Below are positions 3,386-51,910 of a stretch of 64,000 nucleotides of DNA, piece after piece. Both the position numbers and the translations under genes were made by a program. How positions within the stretch are numbered: the first letter of the stretch is position 1; each line of letters begins with the position of its first letter. The notes below the pieces were generated by a model. That model ran no database searches. It was not told the origin of the DNA and saw nothing but the letters and a program-made list of their open reading frames with translations. Source of the DNA: Candidatus Falkowbacteria bacterium (GTDB taxonomy: Bacteria; Patescibacteriota; Patescibacteriia; UBA11705; JABHMO01); NCBI GenBank assembly GCA_018674305.1, contig JABHAL010000001.1:68635-132634 (forward strand), given 5' to 3'.

Positions 3386-3597
3386 TGATAATCTTTTGGA
3401 ACTTCTGGCCAATCCCACACCCCAAGCATTGCGCCAAGGACAATAGAACTACAAAGGATCAAAGCCCCACTAAAAAAAACCTCCTGCTCTCCTAAATGAC
3501 CGAATAAGGGGAGTACTACCATAATAGCTCCAGTAAGAGCTCCTATAATAGCCAATGCCTGAAAAACGACCAAGGCTGCCATTTTTAACTTTTCCAT
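3382..3597 (-). CDS. small membrane protein
   Basis: 71-aa ORF with two predicted TM helices. Confidence 0.4.
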   Translation of the reverse strand: MEKLKMAALVVFQALAIIGALTGAIMVVLPLFGHLGEQEVFFSGALILCSSIVLGAMLGVWDWPEVPKDYQ

Positions 3598-4451: not shown

Positions 4452-6179
4452 CTATTTATCACTTATTTTTAAATCTTGAACTTTGAATTCAAATTCGCGA
4501 CGACCATTCCACTCATTAATTCCCAATTCGCAAACCACATCTATTGTAGCACCTACCTTCAACTTCTCAAACCATTCTTTAGCCTTGCCAAACCAGAGCA
4601 TTTTGTAAATTATTGGGGTGTGTTGCTTTACTGACATACGTAAATGAGTCTTTAGTTTTCCGATTCGATCTGCGCTGACAATTTGCAAATTATTAATTTT
4701 AAATAATGGGCGATCATTCCCTTCCCCAAATGGAGACAGTTCCACGATCTGTTTTAATAACTCAAAGCTAATTTCTGATATTTCAATTTCTCTATCAATC
4801 CACAAGCTCGGGCTCAGATCAATTTCTGAAAGTTTCTTTTCCACTATGCTATAGTACGTCTTTTGAAATTTCTCACGGATCGGGATTTCAGCAAGCGTAA
4901 ACCCACAAGCCCCGGCATGACCTCCATAGCGAGCAAAAAAAGATTCCACACTCCTCAAACTCTGAATCATATCAAAGCCGTCTATACTTCGTCCTGAGCC
5001 GATTATTTTGTTACCAGAAACCGTCATTGCCAAAACTGGGCGGTAAAATTCATCACTCAGACGACCGGCAATTAAACCGATAATACCAGGCAACCAATCT
5101 TCACTAAAAGCAAATATAACTTTTTGGTCCTCAATAGCCGTGACTTGCCCTTTAGCTTCGGCTAAAGATTTTTCTATTATACGTTGACGGTTTACATTAT
5201 TTTCCTGAAGTTCACTGGCAATTTTATCAGCGTCTGCCTGATCTTCAGTCACTAGTAACTCATAAGCCAATTTAGCATGGTTCAATCTTCCCGCGGCATT
5301 GAGTCTTGGTGCAATTTGAAATCCAATAGTAAATGAATCTATGTTTTTGGGTTTAATTAAATCTAACAGACTTTTCAATCCTGGCCATTTAGTTTGAGCT
5401 AATACAATCAATCCCCACTTCACTAAGATACGATTTTCATTAACCAGAGGAGCCACATCTGCTACTGTCCCAATTGCCACAATATCTAATATCCACTTTT
5501 GGTATCCCTCAACACCGCCATATTTTTGAAACTCTGAAGCCGGTATTTTTGATTCATCGCTCAAAATTGCTTGAACTACTTTATACGCCACTCCAGCTCC
5601 AGCCAACTCCCTAAACGGATAACCACTATCTGCAACTTTAGGATCCAAAATTGCATAGGCGTCCGGTATAATTTCTGGTGGTTCATGATGATCTGTAATT
5701 ATCACATCTACCCCTTTTTCATTTAGAAGTGCCACTTCATCAACATTTGTTATACCACAATCAACTGTGATAAATAATTGCACACCCTGAACAATAAAGT
5801 TGTTCACATTGTTAACATTTATACCGTAACCATCCTTTTCTCTATGAGGAATAAAGGTTTCTACGTCCGCACCCAACAACTTAAAAGTTCTATATAGAAT
5901 GGCAGAGCTCGTTACTCCATCCGCATCATAATCACCGTGAATAAGGATTTTTTCTTTCTTTTCAATAGCCTGCAAGATTCGCTCAACTGCCTTCTCCATG
6001 TCCTTGAACTTAAAGGGATCATGCATGCTCCCGTAAGCAGGTTCAAAAAATAAGTCAACATCTGATTGACTTTGTATTCCCCTGTTATATAATAGTTGTA
6101 TGATTACTGGATGAAGGTCAGCAAATTTCAATTTAAATTCAGAACTTGCCTCTTTTCTCAGTTTCCATTTTTTACTCAT
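4452..6179 (-). CDS. recJ: single-stranded-DNA-specific exonuclease RecJ
   Basis: DHH family motifs HGDYDADGVTS and ITDHH; DHHA1-like C-terminal part; length 575 aa. Confidence 0.85.
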   Translation of the reverse strand: MSKKWKLRKEASSEFKLKFADLHPVIIQLLYNRGIQSQSDVDLFFEPAYGSMHDPFKFKDMEKAVERILQAIEKKEKILIHGDYDADGVTSSAILYRTFKLLGADVETFIPHREKDGYGINVNNVNNFIVQGVQLFITVDCGITNVDEVALLNEKGVDVIITDHHEPPEIIPDAYAILDPKVADSGYPFRELAGAGVAYKVVQAILSDESKIPASEFQKYGGVEGYQKWILDIVAIGTVADVAPLVNENRILVKWGLIVLAQTKWPGLKSLLDLIKPKNIDSFTIGFQIAPRLNAAGRLNHAKLAYELLVTEDQADADKIASELQENNVNRQRIIEKSLAEAKGQVTAIEDQKVIFAFSEDWLPGIIGLIAGRLSDEFYRPVLAMTVSGNKIIGSGRSIDGFDMIQSLRSVESFFARYGGHAGACGFTLAEIPIREKFQKTYYSIVEKKLSEIDLSPSLWIDREIEISEISFELLKQIVELSPFGEGNDRPLFKINNLQIVSADRIGKLKTHLRMSVKQHTPIIYKMLWFGKAKEWFEKLKVGATIDVVCELGINEWNGRREFEFKVQDLKISDK

Positions 6180-6310: not shown

Positions 6311-6345
6311 GAGCCGTGTTTTACGAAACACGGCTCTTTTGATTA
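6311..6345. terminator. bidirectional stem-loop (agagccgtgttt..aaacacggctct) with flanking T runs
   Basis: Perfect 12-bp inverted repeat immediately 3' of the metallophosphoesterase ORF. Confidence 0.5.
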
Positions 6346-7098
6346 AATACCTAAACCCAACCTGCGAGACAAAAGCCCCTGCATTCCCATTTGGTTCAGT
6401 CCCTTGATAGTCGATTCAATATCATAGGATACACGATGGTAACGCACAACGATCTTTCGTTGATAAAAATCAATTGTCACATAACAGGCGCGAGGATCCC
6501 TATCCCGTGGCTGACCAACTGAACCCACATTAATAATGTGCTTTTGCACGGCTGACAGTTTATACGGCTCATGAGGATAACTCAACCGCACTGGAGAGTT
6601 TGAACCTGTCCAAATTGTAGGCTGATGTGTATGCCCTACACATGCAAATCGTGTTTGCATAAACTGCATCTGGCCACGAGCTTCTTGTGGATAGCGAATA
6701 TAATCCCAGCCTTCAGGCTCGTGAATACAGCCATGGCTGATGATTAAATTGATCGTCTCAAAAAACATTTGATACGGCAACTGACCGAGGTATGCCAAAT
6801 CATCCTTACTTAACTTTTCCAAATTTTTCATCATGGCCAAGACAGCGATATGATTGTGGTCTACCACCTCTTGTCCTGCAGCTACTTTTACAACACCATC
6901 ATCATGATTTCCTCTCACCACGATATTGGCATTAGCCTGAATCCACTGCACACACTCCTGCGGATCTGGTCCATAACCCACAATGTCACCAAGGCAATAA
7001 ATAGCATCTGGGCTTTGATTTGGAAGATGCTTGCCTACAGCCTGAAGAGCTGGCCAATTACTATGAACATCGCTCAAAATAGCAATTCGAATTCCCAT
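6343..7098 (-). CDS. metallophosphoesterase (calcineurin-like phosphoesterase)
   Basis: Motifs ILSDVHSN, GDIVGYGP, RGNHD. Confidence 0.7.
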   Translation of the reverse strand: MGIRIAILSDVHSNWPALQAVGKHLPNQSPDAIYCLGDIVGYGPDPQECVQWIQANANIVVRGNHDDGVVKVAAGQEVVDHNHIAVLAMMKNLEKLSKDDLAYLGQLPYQMFFETINLIISHGCIHEPEGWDYIRYPQEARGQMQFMQTRFACVGHTHQPTIWTGSNSPVRLSYPHEPYKLSAVQKHIINVGSVGQPRDRDPRACYVTIDFYQRKIVVRYHRVSYDIESTIKGLNQMGMQGLLSRRLGLGI

Positions 7099-7136
7099 GA
7101 CTTTACCTCTGTTTTATATGAACTACAATTCGTAAC

Positions 7137-7165
7137 AATATAGCAAATTTACACAAATCTGTCAA
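7137..7165 (-). promoter_or_regulatory. sigma70-type promoter for the metallophosphoesterase gene
   Basis: Minus-strand reading TTGACA-17nt-TATATT about 30 nt upstream of the ATG at 7098. Confidence 0.5.
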
Positions 7166-7172
7166 TACCATA

Positions 7173-7201
7173 TTGACATAATAACCAAAATTAGCTACAA
7201 T
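7173..7201 (+). promoter_or_regulatory. near-consensus sigma70 promoter (TTGACA-17nt-TACAAT) divergent from the previous one
   Basis: ttgacataataaccaaaattagctacaat; no protein ORF downstream on this strand. Confidence 0.55.
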
Positions 7202-7207
7202 GCAGTG

Positions 7208-7420
7208 TCTGGTACTTGAAGATTACTTTCAAGTGGCGCGGCCAAAAGTCTTAGGACGATCAACCAGAGATGGAGGATCTTAGCGTCTAGAGTCCTTCCG
7301 GATTATGTGACCACAGCGGCACTTGTCCTAATCAAGATAAAGGCTAATAAACAAGCCCCCGCTAGGGTATAGCCAGCAACCAAAAAGACCGAAGTTAAAA
7401 CTTAACTTCGGTCTTTTATA
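7208..7420 (+). ncRNA. candidate ~210-nt small RNA of unknown class, bounded by consensus promoter and intrinsic terminator
   Basis: Promoter at 7173-7201; terminator hairpin gaccgaagtt-aaaac-ttaacttcggtc + TTTT at 7387-7418; internal hairpins (cttgaagattactttcaag; cttaggac..gtcctaa); no ORF. Confidence 0.35.
7387..7418. terminator. bidirectional intrinsic terminator shared by the candidate sRNA (+) and lepA (-)
   Basis: 10-bp GC-containing stem, T-tracts on both strands. Confidence 0.6.
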
Positions 7421-7429
7421 TAGAAAATA

Positions 7430-9259
7430 TTAACGTTTCATCACCGACAAAAAGGCCTCCGGCGGAATATTAACTTTACCTTTACCAAACTCCATCATTC
7501 TCTTTTTGCCTTTTTTCTGTTTGGTTAAAAGTTTCTGTCTTCTCGAATAATCACCACCATATAAATTCGCAGTTACATCTTTACGTAGCGCTGAAATTCG
7601 TTCTGCTGCAATTATTTTCCCACCCAGAGCTGCTTGTAGTTTAACTACAAACTGGTGGCGAGGAATTGATTCCCGTAAACTTTTAACGATTTTCTTTCCA
7701 GTTTGGAAAGCTGCATCTTTATAAACAATTGTACCAAAAGCGTCAACTATTTCTTCAGCAACCAAAACATCCATTTTTACCAACTCAGCAGATTTATATT
7801 TATCAATTTCATAATTCATTGACCCATAACCAGAACTAACAGTTTTTAATTTATCATAAAAATCTACAATCAACATTGCCAGAGGGATTCTATAATGAAG
7901 AATAACTCGCGTTTCATCTATAAATTCTGTAGTTAAGTATTCACCACGCGAGTCTTGAACTAAGGTCATTACATTTCCCATATAATCTTTCGGACAAATA
8001 ATATCAACTTTCATAATCGGTTCTTGCATATGATCAATTACTGTTGGATCAGGAAATTCATTTGGGTTTTTTATTAAATATTCTGTCTCAGATAATATTT
8101 GTTCACGTTTAATCATCTTTGGAAACTTGGATCCTGGCTTTAAAATAACTTTGTAAGCTACGCTAGGAACAGTCACAACTAAATCTAAATCAAATTCGCG
8201 CCTCAACCTTTCTTGAAAAATTTCTAAATGAAGCATTCCCAAAAATCCACACCGGAAACCGAAACCAAGGACTGGCGAACTTTCTGGCTCATAAACCAAG
8301 GCTGCGTCATTTAATTTCAATTTACCTATTGCTTCTCGAAGTTCATTATACTCGTTACCTTCAGAACAAAAAATACCCGCGTAAACCATGGGTTTTACTT
8401 CCTTGTAACCAGCAAGAATTTCAAACTTACCTCGGTCTTCAGATCTAGAAATAGTATCACCAACTCGACATTTTTCAATTTCTTTCAAGCCAGTAACTAT
8501 ATAACCAATTTCACCGGTATTTAATTTATCTTTGGGAACTAAACCTGGCTTCAATATGCCACAATCCAAAACTTCACCCAGAGCATCAGTTCCAACCATG
8601 AAAATTTTGTCACCTTTTTTTACTTCTCCATCAAAAACTCTAACATAAGCTACTACACCTTTATATTCATCATAAAAAGAGTCAAAGGTTAAAGCTCTCA
8701 AAGGTTTATCTGCCTCACCTTTTGGGGCTGGGACTTTTTCAATCACTAACTCCAAAATTTTTTCAACGCCTTCTCCAGTTTTCGCACTACAAGTCAAAAC
8801 TTCATCTGCTCGACAACCAACAAGATTAACTATTTCCTGGGTAACACGTTTTACGTCAGCTGCAGGTAAATCAATCTTATTTAAAACTGGAATAATTTCT
8901 AAATCTTGTTCAATTGCTAGATATAAATTTGCTAAAGTTTGAGCCTGAACACCTTGCGCAGCATCAACCAAAAGAATTGCTCCTTCCACAGCAGCTAAAG
9001 ACCTAGAAACTTCATAGTTGAAATCCACATGTCCAGGAGTATCAATTAAATTCAAAACATGACCCTGATACTCCATTTGAGCAGGCTGAAGTTTAATAGT
9101 GATTCCTCTTTCTTGCTCAAGTTCCATAGTGTCCAAAATCTGGTCCTTCATGTTTCGTTTATCGACCGTTCCAGTCACTTCCAAAAAGCGGTCAGCCAGA
9201 GTAGACTTACCATGATCAATGTGGGCAATTATACAAAAATTTCGGGTTTTTTCTAACAT
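7430..9259 (-). CDS. lepA: elongation factor 4 (LepA); start taken at MLEKTRNF
   Basis: IIAHIDHGKSTLADR G-domain and LepA-specific C-terminal region. Confidence 0.9.
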   Translation of the reverse strand: MLEKTRNFCIIAHIDHGKSTLADRFLEVTGTVDKRNMKDQILDTMELEQERGITIKLQPAQMEYQGHVLNLIDTPGHVDFNYEVSRSLAAVEGAILLVDAAQGVQAQTLANLYLAIEQDLEIIPVLNKIDLPAADVKRVTQEIVNLVGCRADEVLTCSAKTGEGVEKILELVIEKVPAPKGEADKPLRALTFDSFYDEYKGVVAYVRVFDGEVKKGDKIFMVGTDALGEVLDCGILKPGLVPKDKLNTGEIGYIVTGLKEIEKCRVGDTISRSEDRGKFEILAGYKEVKPMVYAGIFCSEGNEYNELREAIGKLKLNDAALVYEPESSPVLGFGFRCGFLGMLHLEIFQERLRREFDLDLVVTVPSVAYKVILKPGSKFPKMIKREQILSETEYLIKNPNEFPDPTVIDHMQEPIMKVDIICPKDYMGNVMTLVQDSRGEYLTTEFIDETRVILHYRIPLAMLIVDFYDKLKTVSSGYGSMNYEIDKYKSAELVKMDVLVAEEIVDAFGTIVYKDAAFQTGKKIVKSLRESIPRHQFVVKLQAALGGKIIAAERISALRKDVTANLYGGDYSRRQKLLTKQKKGKKRMMEFGKGKVNIPPEAFLSVMKR

Positions 9260-17930: not shown

Positions 17931-17959
17931 TTGACAAAGCATGTGCGTTATGCTATAAT
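17931..17959 (+). promoter_or_regulatory. consensus promoter TTGACA-17-TATAAT with extended -10 (TGcTATAAT)
   Basis: ttgacaaagcatgtgcgttatgctataat, 48 nt upstream of the ORF at 18007. Confidence 0.55.
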
Positions 17960-18006: not shown

Positions 18007-18324
18007 ATGCAAACGGATCAAGCCGTTATGACAGAAGAAAATGAGGATCCCTACAAGGATCTATCTACTAGTCGAAAATTTGCAATCCAAACGCTTATAG
18101 TCATTAGTTGTGTAGCCTCAGGACTCGGGATGCTCTGCATGCTCACAATCAGAGAACTATCTTTGGTTCCACTACTGCTCATTGGTTTTGGCAACTTAGC
18201 CCCAATGATCGCCCTTCCTTTGCGCCCCAAAAAAGATATAACAACTGGTTCCTATGCTTCAGCCATAATAAGTTTAATGGTTGCATGCATTTACCTCTAC
18301 TTCGCGCTTATGATAATCAACTAG
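18007..18324 (+). CDS. small membrane protein (3-4 TM)
   Basis: ORF with AGGAG RBS, hydrophobic segments. Confidence 0.5.
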   Translation: MQTDQAVMTEENEDPYKDLSTSRKFAIQTLIVISCVASGLGMLCMLTIRELSLVPLLLIGFGNLAPMIALPLRPKKDITTGSYASAIISLMVACIYLYFALMIIN

Positions 18325-31947: not shown

Positions 31948-31966
31948 AAGTGATTACTGAATTTAC

Positions 31967-31984
31967 CTGCCTGCCGGCAGGCAG
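31967..31984. promoter_or_regulatory. perfect 18-bp GC-rich palindrome ctgcctgccggcaggcag in the leader of the YacP-dnaJ unit
   Basis: Direct reading; ~20 nt 5' of the YacP start codon. Confidence 0.3.
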
Positions 31985-32119
31985 ACTGATATACTGATGA
32001 ACCAAGGAATAATTGCCAAAGTTGGCAGTATGTCAATATTAAGCAGTCTTGACTTTGACTAAATTTAGATAAATTTGAGCATTATTCATACGTCATAATT
32101 CATAATTCATTACTCGCCC

Positions 32120-32148
32120 TTGACTTTTTATTAAAAATATGCTATAAT
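32120..32148 (+). promoter_or_regulatory. promoter TTGACT-17-TATAAT (TGcTATAAT), near-duplicate of the 25743 promoter
   Basis: ttgactttttattaaaaatatgctataat. Confidence 0.55.
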
Positions 32149-32182
32149 GTAATTGAAAATATAATAATGTTCCTTTCACTTT

Positions 32183-32227
32183 GGCAGCTATGCCTGGGCT
32201 AAATCCCCAATAATAGCAGGAAATTTA
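32183..32227 (+). repeat. leader element copy 1 (ggcagctatgccTggg..ccccaataatagcaggaaat) ending at a start codon
   Basis: ~80% identical to copy 2 at 32334-32380. Confidence 0.45.
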
Positions 32228-32323
32228 ATGATAGACGATCCTTCGTCTCCCGTATTCAAGGCATTTCTGTGGTACCTGGCTTTTTCTGCAGTGCTTTTCA
32301 TCATTGGTGGCATTTTCGGTTAA
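32228..32323 (+). CDS. 31-aa hydrophobic micro-protein MIDDPSSPVFKAFLWYLAFSAVLFIIGGIFG (not in ORF track)
   Basis: ATG preceded by the conserved leader element and AGGAA; single predicted TM helix. Confidence 0.3.
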   Translation: MIDDPSSPVFKAFLWYLAFSAVLFIIGGIFG

Positions 32324-32333
32324 CTTATCTTTA

Positions 32334-32380
32334 GGCAGCTATGCCAGGGACGTATGTGCCCATAATAGCAAGGAATAATC
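32334..32380 (+). repeat. leader element copy 2 (ggcagctatgccAggg..cccataatagcaaggaataatc) ending at the ATG of 32381
   Basis: See copy 1. Confidence 0.45.
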
Positions 32381-50055: not shown

Positions 50056-51109
50056 AAAGTTTTTGGTATTGCTTAATTGTTTTATTAACATCAAACTGAT
50101 CAACTACAAACTGCTGAAGTGACTTGGCCATTTTACTAACTAAATCTCTATGTTCGTCAACCCAATTCAATCTTTGAACCAACTGTTCAATGTTTTTTGG
50201 TTTGAAAAGTAAACCATTTTGCTTGTGTTTGATAATCTCTGGCACGCCTCCAACTTCAGTAGCCACAACCACGCGCCCTGCTGCTGCCGCCTCCAATATT
50301 ACTAGACTTAACCCCTCACTTACTGAAGGTAATACAAACACATCAAACTTATTCAAATGCGGTCGAACGTCCTCAACTTCTCCAACAAATTGGACCCGGT
50401 CTTCAATTCCTAAAGATTTAGCTAAGGCCGTTAACTCGCGACGCAATGGCCCATCGCCCACTAGAATTAATTTCCAATTTTTATTCTTCAAAAACCTACA
50501 AGCTCTAATCAAATGTTTATGTCCTTTTTCTTTACTCAATCTACCAACTGATCCAATAGTTATGTCTTCAGTTTTAAATAAGCCTGGATTTTCAATATAA
50601 AATTTACTAACATCAATTCCATTATAAATTACTTCAATATTCTGGATATCAATACCTTCTTCCGCGACTAAATAGTCTCTAGTTGCCTTTGAGATAGCAA
50701 CTACCTTGTTAAACTTACGCCGAGCCTTAAGGCCTAAGCGATCTCGCCAAAAACCCTCGCTCAAAATATCATGCTTGGTACTAATTATATGCTTTACTTT
50801 CGCCTGAATAGCAGCTCGTCCACCCCAAAAATCAGCTGCAAAAAGATTAGTATGCACAATGTCAGGCTTACTTTTTTGCAAATAGTCAGCTACTTTTTTG
50901 ATTATCTTCCAGTCAAATTTTTTAACCTTGTTAAAATATTTAATTTGTACACCTGCATGCTCAAATTGTTCAGCTAGAGGATTGTCTGATTGCAAAACTA
51001 AAACCTCGACCTCAAATTTGGTCTTGTCAATTTTACGACAGATATCCAATAATAACCGCTCTGCCCCACCATACGCCAAACGACCGATTATGTAACTAAT
51101 TTTAATCAT
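50033..51109 (-). CDS. glycosyltransferase family 4
   Basis: GDGPLR..; VLPSVSEGLSLVILEAAAAGRVVVATEVGG. Confidence 0.75.
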   Translation of the reverse strand: MIKISYIIGRLAYGGAERLLLDICRKIDKTKFEVEVLVLQSDNPLAEQFEHAGVQIKYFNKVKKFDWKIIKKVADYLQKSKPDIVHTNLFAADFWGGRAAIQAKVKHIISTKHDILSEGFWRDRLGLKARRKFNKVVAISKATRDYLVAEEGIDIQNIEVIYNGIDVSKFYIENPGLFKTEDITIGSVGRLSKEKGHKHLIRACRFLKNKNWKLILVGDGPLRRELTALAKSLGIEDRVQFVGEVEDVRPHLNKFDVFVLPSVSEGLSLVILEAAAAGRVVVATEVGGVPEIIKHKQNGLLFKPKNIEQLVQRLNWVDEHRDLVSKMAKSLQQFVVDQFDVNKTIKQYQKLYEDIVDK

Positions 51110-51204
51110 ACTTTTTTAGGTAAAAGTCTAAAGGTAAAAAGTAAAAGTAATCGCTAAAAACTTATTACTATGTACTAATATTGTAAACTTTTACATTTGA
51201 ACTT

Positions 51205-51909
51205 TTACTTTCTAGACACTGCAAAAATCAACTCGTCAACAATTTTAGGTGGATCAGTAAACTCCAGGAAATAAATTAACTTCCACCAAGCATGAACTAA
51301 TTTCTGCCCTAAAAATCTAATCATCCGAGTTGGACTATTTTTAGGAAATAAATAAGGATTTATTATTATACCTCTAAATTTACAAAATTTCAATACCTGA
51401 CTTAAACTATATTCAGTAAAGCCTGCCTCATGAGTAAAATCATTATATCGAATGCGCAGACCAGCCAAAGAAGCCATATTGCCAGTTTTAATGATGATAC
51501 TACCACCAGGGTTTAATTTCTGGTAAATCCTGTTCATTGTAGGAATAATTTCAGACTTAGGGATATGTTCGATAACATCATTAAGCACAATTAAATCAAA
51601 AAGCGGACAAGCAATTAAATAATCAACAAGGTCCTCAATTAGTCTTACTTTCTCAATACCTTTATCCTGACAATACTTTACGCTTTCTGGTGAAATATCA
51701 ACCCCTAAATAATTATCATAACCTTGACCAGCTAAAAACTGTAAAAACTGTCCCATACCACAACCAATGTCCAAAATCTTAGCCTGCTTATTTTTAGGCA
51801 AATACTTATTGTAATTGTATTTATACAACTTAATGATATGCTGATCCGCCTTGGCGTTAAGCTGTTCAAACCCTACTGATAAAAAATTTTTATATAAACT
51901 TTGGGACAT
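51205..51909 (-). CDS. class I SAM-dependent methyltransferase; start at MSQSLYKNF (the upstream Met at 51975 would overlap the previous gene)
   Basis: Motif I ILDIGCGMGQF; motif II/III present. Confidence 0.65.
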   Translation of the reverse strand: MSQSLYKNFLSVGFEQLNAKADQHIIKLYKYNYNKYLPKNKQAKILDIGCGMGQFLQFLAGQGYDNYLGVDISPESVKYCQDKGIEKVRLIEDLVDYLIACPLFDLIVLNDVIEHIPKSEIIPTMNRIYQKLNPGGSIIIKTGNMASLAGLRIRYNDFTHEAGFTEYSLSQVLKFCKFRGIIINPYLFPKNSPTRMIRFLGQKLVHAWWKLIYFLEFTDPPKIVDELIFAVSRK

Positions 51910-51910
51910 A

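Follow-up and report, generated by a model that had tools for sequence, protein, structure and literature searches.

A spacer of 331 bp (7099-7429) separates the metallophosphoesterase gene mpe from lepA, both on the minus strand, in the 64,000-nucleotide stretch of Candidatus Falkowbacteria DNA that we analysed over its whole length (hereafter the window), and the question raised by this locus is what, if anything, the spacer encodes. A preliminary description had proposed a small RNA (sRNA) gene of ~210 nt, read on the plus strand from its own promoter and possibly novel or specific to the lineage. CPR bacteria are uncultured and have tiny genomes, and their regulatory RNAs are essentially uncharted: we know of no validated sRNA from these bacteria, which to our knowledge mostly lack Hfq and ProQ, and a search of the literature on sRNAs or 6S RNA in CPR or Falkowbacteria returned nothing relevant. 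The present candidate is well delimited, both by clear transcription signals and by selection. We argue that the spacer probably holds an independent small non-coding RNA gene of ~212 nt (~7207 to ~7418, plus strand), a reading to which we assign a probability of roughly 0.62.

Genomic context of the lepA-mpe spacer

The host is a Patescibacteria MAG whose LepA is annotated as Candidatus Falkowbacteria by NCBI, and the GTDB species nearest to it by LepA are Kuenenbacteria, Falkowbacteria and Parcubacteria MAGs (70-84% identity). The 208-kb metagenome contig ERZ4200961 contains the window, and in the index of the protein collection a flanking protein appears in 55 blocks, the organism being present in many public assemblies. 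In this collection of 5.8 billion proteins, a single other species exceeds 84% LepA identity; we refer to it as the sister species (P0123, loci L082-84 and L101), with amino-acid identities of 93% for LepA and 91% for RecJ.

Both neighbours of the spacer carry the identities given in the preliminary description. On the right lies lepA (elongation factor 4; 7430-9259, minus strand, stop codon at 7430-7432), recognized by Pfam GTP_EFTU, EFG_C and LepA_C and convergent with the predicted RNA gene; on the left lies mpe (6343-7098, minus strand; Pfam Metallophos), divergent from it. The mpe product is a generic YfcE/ApaH-like phosphoesterase for which PADLOC returned no defence-system match, and a link of mpe to defence thus found no support. 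This gene diverges very fast, with 51% amino-acid identity between the window and the sister species versus the much higher values of LepA and RecJ, and syntenic mpe orthologs (window, L082, L085, L088 and L103) are 41-64% identical pairwise. The sister species and three lineages at ~82% LepA identity (L085-90 and L103) have retained the local order murJ...lepA-mpe-recJ-RNase H; in most other relatives, lepA is followed by recJ, without an intervening mpe. Elsewhere in the window, the largest true intergenic region is a 433-nt gap between divergent genes (31948-32380), and a 933-nt stretch (50978-51910) considered as an intergenic gap was rejected as such, being coding.

Divergent promoters and a shared terminator

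Two promoters lie back to back in the spacer, exactly where they had been placed initially, and each matches the consensus at 11 of 12 positions. The RNA gene has its promoter on the plus strand (7173-7201), composed of a -35 box TTGACA (7173-7178), a 17-nt spacer and a -10 box TACAAT (7196-7201). On the minus strand, the mpe promoter (7165-7137) combines TTGACA (7165-7160), a 17-nt spacer and a TG-extended -10 box TATATT (7142-7137). Sites of the form TTGACA-N17-TAYAAT occur three times in the 64-kb window versus 0.03 times expected (100 shuffles). The other two, both with TATAAT (17931-17959, plus strand, and 38620-38648, minus strand), are intergenic and gene-facing, preceding ORF starts at 18007 and 38591 by 48 and 29 nt, respectively, which argues that such sites act as real promoters in this organism. 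A further promoter-like sequence, TTGACT-16-TATAAT (11/12), runs antisense within the 5' part of recJ (6066-6093, plus strand).

Read from the sequence, the -35 boxes of the two promoters form a perfect palindrome, TGTCAAT-N5-ATTGACA (7160-7178), whose counterpart in the sister species is TGTCAA-N7-TTGACA. This palindrome could serve as an operator, i.e. a binding site for a dimeric regulator. Because 7 bp separate the -35 boxes, the RNA and mpe promoters probably compete, and they are probably not both occupied simultaneously. Such competition may also influence mpe in cis, although it would leave the conservation of the transcribed sequence described below unexplained.

The transcript predicted from the plus-strand promoter would start at ~7207-7208, 6-7 nt past the -10 box, and end at ~7418, giving ~212 nt in agreement with the first estimate of ~210 nt. 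Its body (7207-7382, plus strand) is followed by a bidirectional intrinsic terminator common to the RNA on the plus strand and to lepA on the minus strand (7383-7419), 12 nt from the lepA stop. The fold shows a 16-bp stem-loop, in which a G+C-containing core stem of 12 bp (7387-7398/7402-7413) is extended by A-U pairs to 7383/7417. T-runs read from the sequence are present on both strands, as UUUUAU in the plus direction and UUUUUGG in the minus direction, so that the strong hairpin and T-tract described as closing the region and also terminating lepA are recovered. Note that our promoter/terminator pattern scanner missed this hairpin, which the fold showed clearly, because the A-U extension of the stem consumes the T-run. 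In the sister species, the stem still pairs after two one-sided changes (A-U to G-U and G-C to G-U), and the U-run of the plus strand is longer. Promoter and terminator are thus demonstrated as sequence features; from them we infer transcription and the two ends of the transcript.

Conservation of the RNA body in the sister species

The sister-species spacer, of 335 bp, has the same layout, with both promoters, the RNA body and the terminator. Between the two species, the RNA body (7207-7382) is identical at 156 of 176 positions (88.6%), with two 1-nt indels, as compared with 86.7% for lepA overall. By contrast, identity is 40% in the mpe 5'UTR (7099-7136) and 69% at the third codon positions of lepA and recJ, versus 93-98% at their first and second positions. 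Tested against the 0.69 third-position baseline, the identity of the RNA body gives a binomial P of 7e-10. The promoter block is 78% identical, only two of five positions are identical at 7202-7206, and the onset of conservation, from 7206, is abrupt and coincides with the predicted transcription start.

The hexamers of both promoters are retained although their spacers differ. The RNA promoter reads TTGACA-17-TATAAT in the sister species, with three changes, all in the 17-nt spacer, and the mpe hexamers are kept as TTGACA and TATACT. Within the window species, strain L102 has one difference, A7259G, a state common to the sister species. The last 66 lepA codons, which adjoin the RNA, show 70% third-position identity, and therefore give no sign of a recent recombination tract behind the conservation. 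Overall, this comparison of sequences shows conservation of the RNA body above the neutral level, indicative of purifying selection as strong as that acting on lepA.

Coding potential of the spacer

The plus-strand promoter had been described as pointing into a region free of ORFs, and indeed ~228 bp are without an ORF of at least 30 aa; none of this size exists on either strand in 7144-7429, where smaller ones of 8-27 aa are found. The only conserved plus-strand ORF encodes 27 aa from an ATG at 7200-7202 (29 aa in the sister species). Its core of 12 aa, VARPKVLGRSTR, is identical in both species, and two substitutions within this core are synonymous. The ATG lies inside the -10 hexamer, so upstream of any transcript from the RNA promoter, and a 1-nt deletion changes the C-terminus in the sister species.

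On the minus strand, an ORF at 7303-7383 encodes 26 hydrophobic aa behind the lepA terminator, without a promoter of its own. In the sister species, a 1-nt deletion splits this ORF; a 10-aa ORF, MIRT(S/I)(A/S)AVVT, is nested at its 3' end. The substitutions at 7306, 7309, 7312 and 7315 follow a 3-nt spacing and are all synonymous in the frame of the 26-aa ORF, a run for which permutation over six frames gives P ~0.05. In a plus-strand frame, two of the stem substitutions discussed below are synonymous as well. None of the candidate small ORFs is preceded by a Shine-Dalgarno sequence, mpe by contrast having AGAGG, and the largest coverage of the conserved RNA body by an ORF is ~80 of 176 nt. 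With no Shine-Dalgarno, an ATG within the -10 box, frame-breaking indels and this limited coverage, the small-ORF readings do not convince, and the region is therefore read as non-coding. A type I toxin-antitoxin system was rejected on the same features of the minus-strand hydrophobic ORF, which lacks a Shine-Dalgarno and a promoter, follows the lepA terminator and is interrupted in the sister species.

Predicted structure of the RNA

Folding of the full transcript yields -72.8 kcal/mol (z = -4.9), mostly from the terminator. Without it, the z-score of the core is -2.2 for the window and -1.0 for the sister species, with similar values for the minus strand. The several internal hairpins noticed at first sight are thus present in the predictions, but the strong fold signal belongs mostly to the terminator.

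In the fold that we infer, with all coordinates on the plus strand, hairpin D1 (7213-7235) is predicted in every case, with an ACUUGAA/UUCAAGU stem, still paired after a single change from U-A to U-G, and a variable loop that takes up five substitutions. In the RNAalifold consensus, a long-range helix, P3, pairs GUCUUAGGACGA (7248-7259) with a 3' strand made of UUGUCCUA, an AUCA bulge and AGAU (7323-7338), and all its 12 pairs are kept across all sequences. Position 7259, which is A or G (G also in strain L102), stands opposite U7323, so A-U alternates with G-U. P3 encloses an 11-bp hairpin, Hc (7272-7298; GGAGGAU-C-UUAG-CGU-CUAG-A-GUCCUUC), in which G7273A in the sister species turns G-U into A-U; the longest perfectly conserved block (7275-7305) overlaps this hairpin. 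The most variable segment of the RNA follows (7306-7322, with six substitutions in 17 nt) and is probably unpaired or change-tolerant. The 3' domain, D3 (7342-7374), is predicted either as a local hairpin, GGCUA...UAGCC, whose apical loop is rich in C (CCCCC at 7356-7360, CUCCC in the sister species), or with its 3' strands pairing long-range with 7206-7213 and 7235-7241. The two models have equal energy (~-41 kcal/mol), and the long-range one holds the sole two-sided change, G7241-C7357 to A-U.

All four stem substitutions keep pairing in the RNAalifold consensus (U-A/U-G, U-G/U-A, A-U/G-U and G-U/A-U), and predicted loops take up the other 15 differences, namely 13 substitutions and the two 1-nt indels. 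This amounts to four changes in 102 paired positions versus 15 differences in ~70 unpaired positions, a contrast with some circularity, since these two sequences also gave the consensus fold. As to the structural covariation suggested as a check, the substitutions keep pairing, but with four distinct rows, from an element carried by two species and one strain variant, covariation has no statistical power and none is significant, controls reaching the observed values in 94-500 of 500 shuffles. The minimum-energy folds differ between the window and the sister species, and neither the local nor the long-range model of D3 is statistically supported. The numerous G-U pairs could form in a plus-strand transcript alone, which, with the promoter, places the predicted RNA on that strand.

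Distribution among relatives

We compared the synteny of 80 lepA loci of GTDB species and of the loci of all closer lepA/mpe relatives among the 5.8 billion proteins, and the RNA was found only in the sister species. In the three mpe-bearing lineages at ~82% LepA identity, the spacers measure 150-205 bp and hold only the mpe promoter and a terminator; neither nhmmer nor R1, a covariance model built from the RNA sequences of the two species, gave a match in them. Across 46 loci of relatives (392 kb) and the window, nhmmer and R1 returned only the window itself and the sister species, and R1 run with filters off on two further lepA loci gave no match. Two pattern scans of viral contigs yielded chance matches or none, and no homologue was detected by blastn in phages, plasmids or E. 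coli genomes. In the JGI metagenome contigs, a three-motif descriptor designed to exclude the window's own allele had 0 matches, and an 18-mer from the most conserved block had two chance matches, both rejected by the covariance model.

As far as public data show, in the syntenic loci and sequence collections covered here, the RNA would be confined to two species of one genus-level Falkowbacteria group, and other genera may have copies at other loci. Comparison of the lepA-downstream spacer, which the preliminary description had put forward as a test, supports the element in the nearest relative, where the hexamers, 88.6% of the body and the terminator are kept against 40-69% for the neutral proxies, but not in more distant relatives, whose same spacer has no such element. 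This absence fits a lineage-specific gene. Related lineages that have an mpe ortholog but not the RNA make an obligate RNA-protein pair unlikely.

Relatives carry other features at this position. In those without mpe, a conserved hydrophobic ORF of ~30 aa (e.g. MKKTQKIIWTIIVILMIFSMLFFTILPLYY) lies between lepA and recJ on the strand opposite to lepA (L031, ~4900-4990; L063, ~4900-5000; L019, ~3480-3580; L105, 5820-5915), in the slot and orientation of the window's RNA gene and with no sequence similarity to the RNA. The lepA-recJ stretch of L105, 821 nt without a called gene, also contains two small Cys-rich ORFs (zinc-ribbon-like, CxxC...CxxC; 5290-5760, opposite to lepA) adjoining the small membrane peptide gene. 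In one Falkowbacteria MAG (L009, ~5030-5290), the region downstream of lepA contains ~12 tandem copies of a 17-nt unit, TCTAAGGGGAGAGAAGA, and in several other CPR MAGs (L002, L006 and L019) the lepA stop is immediately followed by short tandem repeats rich in A and T.

Search for known RNA families

The 4227 covariance models of Rfam 15 gave 0 matches at gathering thresholds over the whole 64-kb window, in which ARAGORN found no tRNA or tmRNA gene; this agrees with the failure to recognize SRP, tmRNA, RNase P or 6S signatures by eye. At E<=10, on both strands of both species, the only hits were alignments to the terminator hairpin (HrrF, SpF39 and others), the best at 27 bits versus a cut-off of 60, and the core alone gave one spurious snoRNA match (E = 2.3). 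Being of no known family in Rfam 15, kept in the sister species and absent from the spacer of distant relatives, the RNA may well be novel and lineage-specific, as had been supposed.

Several identities were considered and rejected. A tRNA or tmRNA was rejected on the ARAGORN result, and SRP RNA and RNase P RNA on the lack of an Rfam match at E<=10 on either strand. On the minus strand, UCCGGAAGGA resembles the SRP tetraloop region, but it is without the flanking loop motifs, and the G-U pairs and the promoter favour the plus strand. The rod fold of 6S RNA was not supported, because the predicted folds are multi-branched and the duplex between the 5' and 3' halves scores z = -1.1 and -1.6 versus shuffles. 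A riboswitch or cis leader was rejected, with no match to a riboswitch family and no anti-terminator complement seen by eye; the arrangement does not apply because no gene follows on the plus strand, lepA being convergent. As predicted from sequence signals, the gene has the generic features of a trans-encoded sRNA, namely its own promoter, its own terminator and no translated ORF.

Alternative explanations

Conservation without any function at the RNA level, through a DNA-level constraint, a low local mutation rate or chance, would have to account for a conserved block that begins at the predicted transcription start, for identities of 40% just upstream (mpe 5'UTR) and 69-70% at lepA synonymous sites just downstream, for promoter hexamers kept while their spacer varies, and for substitutions that avoid the predicted stems (4 in 102 paired versus 15 in ~70 unpaired positions, a count with the circularity noted above). 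We consider this improbable, even with a single informative comparison between two species, a weak folding z-score, no significant covariation and related genera without the element at this locus. An action in cis would be of two kinds: the plus promoter may occlude the mpe promoter or compete with it, or a riboswitch-like leader and the terminator may gate antisense read-through into lepA. The footprints of RNA polymerase would have to overlap, since the -35 boxes form one palindrome (7160-7178), and a structured RNA of ~175 nt followed by a terminator and then by the antisense strand of a gene resembles the riboswitch-controlled antisense RNAs known in Firmicutes. Promoter competition, however, needs no 88.6% conservation over 176 transcribed nt, and for the leader, by eye, neither terminator arm has an alternative anti-terminator pairing, no riboswitch family matches, and the terminator is a perfect 12-bp G+C-containing stem that must also stop lepA. 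Both kinds taken together, a cis role is very unlikely.

Could the RNA instead be the housekeeping RNA of this lineage, too divergent for Rfam models, most plausibly a 6S-like, RNA polymerase-binding one that sits at another locus in other Falkowbacteria? A body of ~175 nt, a strong constitutive-looking promoter, a stand-alone gene and conservation at the level of lepA would all fit, and we know of no described 6S RNA in CPR bacteria, the literature searched having yielded none; the absence from the syntenic spacer is compatible with a copy elsewhere in the genomes of relatives. We nevertheless regard it as highly unlikely, given that neither strand of either species matches 6S, SRP, RNase P or tmRNA at E<=10, that the folds are multi-branched and not a rod with a central bubble, that half-to-half complementarity is like that of shuffles (z = -1.1 and -1.6), and that the 18-mer and the three-motif descriptor have no homologue in JGI metagenomes. 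Equally hard to sustain is a product consisting of a tiny protein or several of them, or of an RNA with a dual function, encoded by the plus-strand 27-aa ORF, the minus-strand 26-aa ORF or the nested 10-aa ORF. The identical 12-aa core of the plus-strand ORF in both species (VARPKVLGRSTR) with its two synonymous substitutions, the four synonymous minus-strand substitutions at 3-nt spacing (7306-7315) and the ~30-aa membrane peptide gene in the equivalent slot and orientation in relatives speak for it. They are set against an ATG (7200) within the -10 hexamer, the lack of a Shine-Dalgarno before any candidate ORF, two 1-nt indels that break the frames (altering the plus-strand C-terminus and splitting the minus-strand 26-aa ORF in the sister species), a coverage by any single ORF of at most ~80 of the 176 conserved nt, a permutation P of only ~0.05 over six frames for the synonymous run, and the position of the minus-strand ORFs behind the lepA terminator, without a promoter of their own.

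Proposed role and relation to known RNAs

Our preferred reading is that of an independent sRNA gene. Transcription would start at the near-consensus sigma-70-type promoter, back to back with that of the phosphoesterase gene, and would stop at the hairpin that also terminates the convergent lepA. Most likely, the product would be a trans-acting regulatory RNA, acting by base pairing via exposed conserved segments (such as the C-rich loop at 7356-7360 or UCAACCAGAG at 7260-7269) or by protein binding, and the conserved, predicted-unpaired CGGAUUA (7299-7305) is a further candidate interaction site. A target scan of the 52 translation-start regions in the window gave duplex energies no better than those of shuffled RNA, with a method that produced unrealistically long duplexes. 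Two more far-reaching variants, taken together, are unlikely: a structured protein-binding or catalytic CPR-specific RNA (e.g. a functional counterpart of 6S or of another global regulator in organisms devoid of the usual RNA chaperones, with copies elsewhere in Patescibacteria too divergent for word-based searches), or an sRNA gene recently born between an existing promoter and terminator in a ~1-Mb genome.

The locus offers a credible genus-restricted orphan sRNA gene, whose sequence family would be new and whose kind would be ordinary; on present evidence, it adds to the orphan sRNA candidates and does not establish a new kind of system. Its expression, if confirmed, would mean that lineage-specific sRNA genes are acquired and maintained even in CPR genomes that are strongly reduced, and the presence of the organism in many public assemblies makes it a convenient first case for metatranscriptome mapping.

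Three known systems invite comparison. The raiA motif RNA, an orphan structured RNA of unknown or recently found function, is ~200 nt long and has its own promoter and terminator. The predicted RNA shares with it a multi-stem architecture, a length of ~200 nt, an independent gene and conservation over the full length rather than in a short seed; it differs by the lack of an Rfam match to raiA or similar motifs, by its occurrence in two species and not in thousands, and by the lack of covariation support. The 6S RNA (RF00013 and related families) is an irregular extended hairpin, its halves pairing around a large central bubble, that binds the RNA polymerase holoenzyme and templates pRNA. Its size, stand-alone gene, strong housekeeping-type promoter and highly conserved whole body recall the present candidate, which in contrast has no covariance-model match at E<=10 and no rod with a central bubble. 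Finally, the RsaE/RoxS class of Firmicutes comprises Hfq-independent RNAs with C-rich loops, among the trans-encoded sRNAs with a sigma-70 promoter and an intrinsic terminator. Unlike this class, the candidate has no Rfam sequence or structure match, a C-run that varies between the two species (CUCCC in the sister species), no predicted target and a CPR host. Like it, the candidate would be an orphan intergenic gene of 100-250 nt with several stem-loops, conserved only among close relatives, and its predicted apical-loop C-run (CCCCC, 7356-7360) could pair with Shine-Dalgarno sequences.
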